This document shows, one piece after another, positions 46,325-46,783 of a stretch of 64,000 nucleotides of DNA. The notes beneath the pieces are model-generated. The model made no database searches, had not been told where the DNA came from, and was given only the letters and a program-made list of their open reading frames with translations. Location of the stretch: the sequence record PZ386948.1; one strand, given 5' to 3'. The stretch's first letter is position 1. Each line of letters begins with the position of its first letter. The DNA is from a phage. Both the position numbers and the translations under genes were made by a program.

Positions 46325-46783
46325 TTATTTTAAATCGTCTGCCCAATCAACTTTAAGAGGTTCTTTATATTCACGATCTAATACGACCGGAATTTGTACA
46401 TCACCGCTAAATGATAAGGGCCCAACATTATAAGACAATGTTATATGCGGTGTGTAATCATCAAAATCGTGTGTAGCACCTAGTGCCCGCGCATACATAT
46501 GTCGACAGCGCAGATATTCAGAATCTAGCACAAGTACAAGAGTCGATCCATCTTGTGTTTTCCACACTTCTAAATGTCCAGAAGAAGCTACTTCAAAACT
46601 TCCACTCGATGGAACATACGGAACATTTACTCTTGAATAACATATAGTTGAATGAATTTTTTCTCTAGGAACTGGATTAGGAACACGTAAAGAGCGCTGG
46701 AGTTCTTCCAGCGCGTCAAGTGTTAATTCTGAAAACTTAGCTGCTACATAAAGACCCGTTGAAAAGTCTTTAAATTCCATCAT
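46325..46783 (-). CDS. 57B: 2H phosphoesterase (57B / Acb1-like anti-CBASS nuclease)
   Basis: 152 aa; two H-x-T/S-x motifs ([15 protein letters not shown]); position upstream of 57A as T4 57B. Confidence 0.7.

Follow-up and report, generated by a model that had tools for sequence, protein, structure and literature searches.

Acb1, encoded by gene 57B of phage T4, was found by activity-guided fractionation as a degrader of 3′3′-cGAMP (Hobbs et al., 2022; PMC9117128). The crystal structure of its orthologue from Erwinia phage FBB1 revealed a 2H phosphoesterase fold in which residues 145-152 form a lid at the C-terminus; Y12, W74, F107 and W147 are the stacking residues, and E141 contacts adenine (PMC9117128). 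An HxT/HxT tetrad (H44, T46, H113 and T115) performs a metal-independent cut 3′ of adenosine via a cyclic phosphate intermediate; the H44A mutation inactivates T4 Acb1, and H44A/H113A is a catalytically dead mutant (PMC9117128). CBASS operons restrict T4 Δacb1 (PMC9117128), and both cyclic-oligonucleotide cleavage and the anti-CBASS phenotype have been shown directly for the T4 protein (PMC9117128; HIDEN-SEQ preprint). The gene is dispensable on K-12 but depleted on a CBASS host, where it is conditionally essential (HIDEN-SEQ preprint). Its expression in T4 was described as "predominantly middle/late" (PhageExpressionAtlas preprint, bioRxiv 10.64898/2026.03.30.715471). Type I and type II Panoptes guard systems sense Acb1-encoding Tevenvirinae, which escape by acb1 mutation (PMC13577387). 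Two other proteins, Acb2 (T4 vs.4) and Apyc1, serve the same goal of depleting nucleotide immune signals. However, Acb2 sequesters the signal without cleaving it, and Apyc1, a Zn-dependent enzyme of the MBL fold, is not homologous to Acb1 (PMC9117128).

We analysed a 64,000-nucleotide stretch of phage DNA (record PZ386948.1; hereafter the window), which is collinear with the ~27-92 kb part of T4. The phage belongs to Tequatrovirus, with T4 and Shigella phage CM8 as close relatives. The original prediction, made from the letters of the sequence, described a 152-aa ORF with two H-x-T/S-x motifs beside 57A and this region's internal-protein genes and named it a likely Acb1 homologue. The ORF listing of the window contains exactly this ORF at 46325..46783 on the minus strand, with an ATG start and 152 codons plus stop. 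Its translation carries KIHSTICY, in which H44-S45-T46 is encoded at 46646..46654 (minus), and PHITLSY, in which H113-I114-T115 is encoded at 46439..46447 (minus). The product matched the Pfam family PF23474, "Anti-CBASS protein Acb1", with 201.3 bits (E 7.5e-60), over the whole profile (1-144 of 144) and residues 9-150 of the protein. The curated cutoff of this family is 27 bits, and no other Pfam family scored above its threshold. The pairwise alignment with T4 gp57B (NP_049750.1; ACB1_BPT4) was gapless, of equal length and identical at 151 of 152 residues (99.3%), with both catalytic histidines in place. With 201 bits against a cutoff of 27 and this degree of identity, the match is far beyond chance. 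The statement that T4 57B is Acb1 also proved correct (PMC9117128), and the proposed homology is upheld by the full-length family match, the T4 identity and the structures considered below.

Among PDB sequences, the best match was the FBB1 Acb1 (7T26/7T27, E 1.1e-61), whose structures define both the 2H fold and the mechanism with cGAMP bound. Residues 9-149 of the window protein, including both HxT motifs, align to residues 1-142 of chain 7T26_A. FBB1 belongs to another genus, and its Acb1 differs by a clearly divergent sequence and a one-residue indel. Further Acb1 structures, 9Q2G/9Q2Y (165 aa), showed recognisable similarity over residues 8-119, including the region of the second HxT-type motif, but the match was marginal (E 0.004-0.03). 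A single-sequence AlphaFold2 model was too poor for use (mean pLDDT 37.7, pTM 0.30), and a 2H fold is predicted for the product by homology to 7T26.

A tblastn search of 50,697 phage records found the protein in 1,471, of which 172 matched at 99% identity or higher and Shigella phage CM8 at 100%. The identity with CM8 57B (YP_010075950.1) extends to the 459-nt DNA, which does not differ at any position. An exact-sequence look-up showed that the protein is already deposited (QEG04827.1 / YP_010075950.1) and bears the name "Anti-CBASS protein Acb1" in UniRef. The gene is an ordinary, already characterised enzyme of the T4 family, and there is nothing new about it. CM8 carries two "RNA ligase" entries, which prompted a tblastn search of the window for another copy of acb1; none was found. 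In CM8, a tandem duplication (L002, 3108..4339) places a truncated 57B (81 aa), IpI and Ip5 right downstream of the intact acb1; it has no counterpart in the window.

The "RNA ligase" name points to another reading, in which the product would act on the ends of RNA, e.g. during tRNA repair, as an RNA ligase or as a LigT-type 2′-5′ RNA ligase / RNA 2′,3′-cyclic phosphodiesterase. PHROG 755, which the product matches, is described as "RNA ligase", as are T4 57B and its orthologues in RefSeq, where one record reads "putative RNA 2′,3′-cyclic phosphodiesterase". A tRNA cluster (41921..43813, minus) lies near acb1, and LigT-type and CPDase 2H members share with Acb1 the two HxT/S motifs and metal-independent cyclic-phosphate chemistry (PMC9117128). 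Similarity to the LigT-type Pfam family 2_5_RNA_ligase2 (PF13563) was weak (E 0.1) and centred on the second HxT motif; the model reached only 13.1 bits against a cutoff of 27 and covered residues 81-123 only, compared with 201 bits for Acb1. The product thus fell outside the LigT / 2′-5′ RNA ligase family (PF13563 and relatives), and a search of NCBIfam returned no family at E <= 10. LigT-type enzymes act on RNA ends, whereas Acb1 acts on cyclic oligonucleotide signals, and it is the latter activity, together with the anti-CBASS phenotype, that the biochemistry of the T4 protein revealed. The RNA ligase label derives from superfamily-level similarity to LigT-type 2H enzymes and not from experiment. 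Although widespread for 57B orthologues, the RefSeq/PHROG label is outdated, and we regard an RNA-end activity of this product as exceedingly unlikely.

The assignment as Acb1 was further examined at the level of single residues. Because L145V is the sole difference between the product and T4 Acb1, all published functional residues are kept. H44, T46, H113 and T115 all occupy their T4-numbered positions, as do Y12, W74, F107 and W147 and the adenine contact E141. The lid (residues 145-152, encoded at 46328..46351, minus) is full length, with W147 retained and a conservative L145V as the only change. We aligned 12 homologues from annotated phage records, with identities down to 27%, covering Tequatrovirus, Karamvirus, Krischvirus, Tulanevirus, Lazarusvirus, Pseudotevenvirus, Muldoonvirus and a jumbo Salicola phage (8 or more genera). 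The invariant positions were G10, Y12, V38, H44, T46, S50, V83, R94, G102, Y110, H113, T115 and E138. At the DNA level, the gene differs from T4 57B at 12 nucleotides, ten of them synonymous third-position changes and two in codon 145 (46349..46351, minus). Since the codons that differ from T4 are synonymous except for 145, the pattern indicates purifying selection on what is probably a functional acb1 gene.

The V145 allele was found on 1 contig, compared with 552 contigs for the T4 allele (ACB1_BPT4) by exact-sequence look-up. Its rarity is one of the points that would favour an Acb1 allele with a substrate range shifted or narrowed by L145V relative to T4 Acb1. Residue 145 belongs to the lid that closes over the ligand, two residues from W147, and leucine is the majority residue there (9 of the 12 homologues). 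In addition, Panoptes guard systems select against broad-specificity Acb1. However, valine is a conservative replacement for leucine, position 145 does not appear among the published contact residues, every contact residue is unchanged, and two distant homologues carry Gln or Phe at this site. We consider L145V a conservative change at an apparently tolerant site and such a shift of range extremely improbable. That V145 could tune the enzyme, for instance by weakening cA3 cleavage so that Panoptes is triggered less while anti-CBASS activity is kept, is only slightly less improbable; if true, V145 would be a natural case of specificity narrowing in the Acb1-Panoptes conflict. The expectation for the V145 allele is that it behaves like T4 Acb1, which would mean cleaving 3′3′-cGAMP, cUA and cA3 and rescuing the phage from CBASS.

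The gene context was then compared. On the minus strand, gene 3 is followed by gene 1, 57A and acb1. Gene 1, the first of the 1-57A-57B run, encodes dNMP kinase (47010..47735, minus; Pfam DNMK, E 2.4e-106); its product is 98.3% identical to T4 gp1, and the aligned start is 47735. The tail-fibre chaperone gene 57A lies at 46780..47010 (minus; Pfam GP57, E 2.7e-50). Directly downstream of it, acb1 begins with a 4-nt overlap in which the 57A stop and the acb1 start share ATGA, as also annotated in T4 and CM8. Translational coupling of acb1 to 57A is a reasonable inference because of this overlap and its presence in both relatives. The window and CM8 share a short 57A allele of 76 aa, compared with 80 aa in T4 and T2. 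The difference results from a 12-bp deletion between direct repeats AGATGAAG at the 3′ end of 57A (about 46784..46800, minus), which removed four codons shortly before the start of acb1 and left the ATGA overlap intact. In Citrobacter phage CfP1 (L009, 1459..2082), the Acb1 homologue has 207 aa, with a C-terminal extension of ~55 aa past the lid region, and an annotated terminator separates it from 57A, with no overlap.

Two successive ATG codons occur at the acb1 start (46778..46783) in the window, T4 and CM8. T2 (L012, 1501..1506) reads ATA-ATG with a TAA stop for 57A, and its 57B begins at the second Met. Because T2 reads ATA at the first position, M2, the sole Met conserved in T2, may be the true initiator of acb1; published numbering follows the 152-aa form. 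An antisense ORF of 54 aa with a GTG start (46483..46647, plus) lies inside acb1 and was set aside, as nothing supports it as a gene.

The order 3-1-57A-57B was found in ten phages of different genera, T4, T2, CM8, PECP20, VPA32, VP8, pEJ01, ZHF, Berthold and CfP1. The genes after 57B vary across these phages and comprise internal-protein genes, hypothetical genes, tRNAs or a Dmd-containing block. The block 3-1-57A-57B is one of structural, chaperone and nucleotide-metabolism genes, and the partners of acb1 across Straboviridae are 57A and gene 1 rather than internal-protein genes. Because the block is conserved in the ten phages and the downstream genes differ, the most fitting view of acb1 is that it closes a conserved core block, at the border with a hyperplastic region, and is not cargo of an anti-defence island.

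Possible transcription signals were searched for. A generic sigma-70 scan returned 20 promoter-like sites versus 19.0 in shuffled sequences, and a terminator scan returned 3 terminator-like sites versus 2.8, neither showing enrichment. Therefore, only T4-specific motifs and a repeated intergenic cassette were considered. By pattern search, a match to the T4 middle-promoter consensus, with the MotA box AATGCTTCA, a 12-nt spacing and TATAAT, was located at 47759..47786 (minus), just upstream of gene 1; it is the likely source of a 1-57A-acb1 transcript. The T4 late-promoter motif TATAAATA was matched at 47366..47373 (minus), within gene 1 and upstream of 57A and acb1. The two motif matches are consistent with the middle/late expression reported for T4, and the promoter-like sites may well be in use. 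At the gathering threshold, Rfam detected six tRNAs only, with nothing in or near acb1.

The repeated cassette starts right after the acb1 stop and ends the acb1 unit. Its first copy (46253..46324, minus; 72 nt), delineated by promoter scan, four-copy alignment and RNA folding, is identical to the T4 copy. It contains a 13-bp hairpin (46273..46302, minus; -17.4 kcal/mol, z -3.4) and a TG-extended promoter-like site, TTTACA-17-TACTAT (46283..46311, minus), followed by a Shine-Dalgarno sequence and the ATG of the first internal-protein gene. Variants of the cassette also precede the next three genes downstream, with copies at 45923..45994, 45563..45634 and 45265..45325 (all minus). A cassette of ~65 nt thus stands before each internal-protein gene and before a trna.4-like ORF, in the order AAAGTTGTTTACAT, hairpin, GTGATACTATTACC, SD and ATG. 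The stem of copy 1 (13 bp) is unlike those of copies 2-4. The cassette looks like a recombination/expression module that allows shuffling of internal-protein genes, and the CM8 duplication is consistent with recombination in this region.

The neighbours of acb1 had been described as an array of internal-protein genes, and this description agrees with the Pfam IPI_T4 and PHROG internal head/virion protein matches found downstream on the same strand. The first is an Ip5-like internal head protein gene (45995..46252, minus; PHROG 3499, E 1.2e-48), named Ip5 in the CM8 and T2 annotations. It is not at this position in T4, where ipI follows 57B; CM8 has the same downstream order as the window, Ip5 and then IpI. 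The second is ipI (45635..45922, minus; Pfam IPI_T4, E 7.3e-54); its product, 100% identical to T4 IpI, is injected and inhibits GmrSD type IV restriction. The third is an Ip8-like internal virion protein gene (45326..45562, minus; PHROG 8765, E 2.4e-25), annotated in CM8 as Ip8 with 74 aa; an internal ATG at 45550, giving MKTYQEF..., is its probable start. The Ip5-like and Ip8-like genes flank ipI beside acb1 (45326..46252). The T4 proteins IpI, IpII and IpIII inhibit different GmrSD type IV restriction enzymes, each with its own specificity (PMC12373910). The ipII and ipIII genes were undetectable anywhere in the window, so the internal-protein repertoire is unlike that of T4; at the site that they occupy in T4, denV (36023..36433) and e (36496..36987) are separated by only ~62 bp.

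The original prediction went on to call this stretch a counter-defence neighbourhood, which held only in part. Acb1 lies near at least one proven counter-defence gene, ipI, whose product equals T4 IpI, a proven GmrSD inhibitor. On the other hand, no target is known for the Ip5-like and Ip8-like proteins, the genera share the linkage 3-1-57A-57B with variable genes downstream, and acb2 is ~12 kb away. The possibility that Acb1 itself is packaged and injected was also considered, with its N-terminus MMEFKDF read as a degenerate form of the capsid-targeting sequence of the adjacent internal proteins (cf. MKTFKEF). The test for such a sequence was an N-terminal MKT[FY][KQ]EF... with a protease site, (L/I)xE, in the next 20 residues or so. 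Acb1 begins with MMEFKDFST, and residues 25-27 form its first (L/I)xE. A looser motif, [FY]x[DE][FIL], is common at the N-termini of T4-type proteins; it was present in 7 of the window's 138 ORFs, rI.-1 (MKFSDFSQ) among them. The first eight residues of Acb1 are also variable among the 12 aligned homologues. Packaging and injection of Acb1 were thus rejected as unsupported.

Other differences from T4 were seen elsewhere in the window. The tRNA cluster contains six tRNAs (Arg, Met/Ile-CAT, Thr, Ser, Gly and Leu) compared with eight in T4, and no Pro or Gln tRNA was found. It is split by one homing-endonuclease ORF, GIY-YIG/segB-like (42354..43004), whose similarity to T4 SegB covers only the N-terminal 117 aa, and flanked by another, an HNH ORF (43181..43813). 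T4 vs.5 aligned as two pieces in different reading frames (34463..34637) and T4 vs.8 as two pieces overlapping in the query (35335..35983), which suggests frameshifts, pseudogenes or sequencing errors. Three genes, trna.3 (44700..45092), tk.4 (32010..32474) and tk.2 (31259..31441), were only 54-58% identical to T4, while the backbone is otherwise 95-100% identical; recombination may have replaced these alleles. The window lacks tk.1 and e.7. A homologue of T4 vs.4, which encodes the cyclic-oligonucleotide sponge Acb2, lies at 34160..34423 (minus) with 94% identity, so that the phage carries both known T4 anti-CBASS genes.

We conclude, with a probability of about 0.96, that this ORF represents a functional acb1 (T4 57B) allele, encoding a small, metal-independent 2H phosphoesterase that averts CBASS by linearising its signal. 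What the sequence can establish, namely gene identity, retention of all published functional residues, conserved synteny and a pattern of purifying selection, stands here beside enzymology and a phenotype that were demonstrated on the 99.3%-identical T4 protein (PMC9117128; phenotype also HIDEN-SEQ preprint). In the proposed course of events, acb1 would be transcribed with gene 1 and 57A, probably from middle and late promoters, and probably translated by coupling to 57A. During infection, the enzyme would bind cyclic di- and trinucleotides made by host CBASS CD-NTases, among them 3′3′-cGAMP, cUA, cAAA/cA3 and others with at least one adenosine, and its C-terminal lid would close over the ligand. 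The H44/T46/H113/T115 tetrad would then cut 3′ of adenosine through a 2′,3′-cyclic phosphate intermediate. With the signal linearised, the CBASS effector would never be activated and abortive infection would be averted.

The finding matters as correct annotation only and advances no open question. For the phage itself, it means that Acb1 and an Acb2 homologue are both at hand against CBASS, and the same phage is a likely target of Panoptes-type guards that sense cyclic-nucleotide depletion (PMC13577387).
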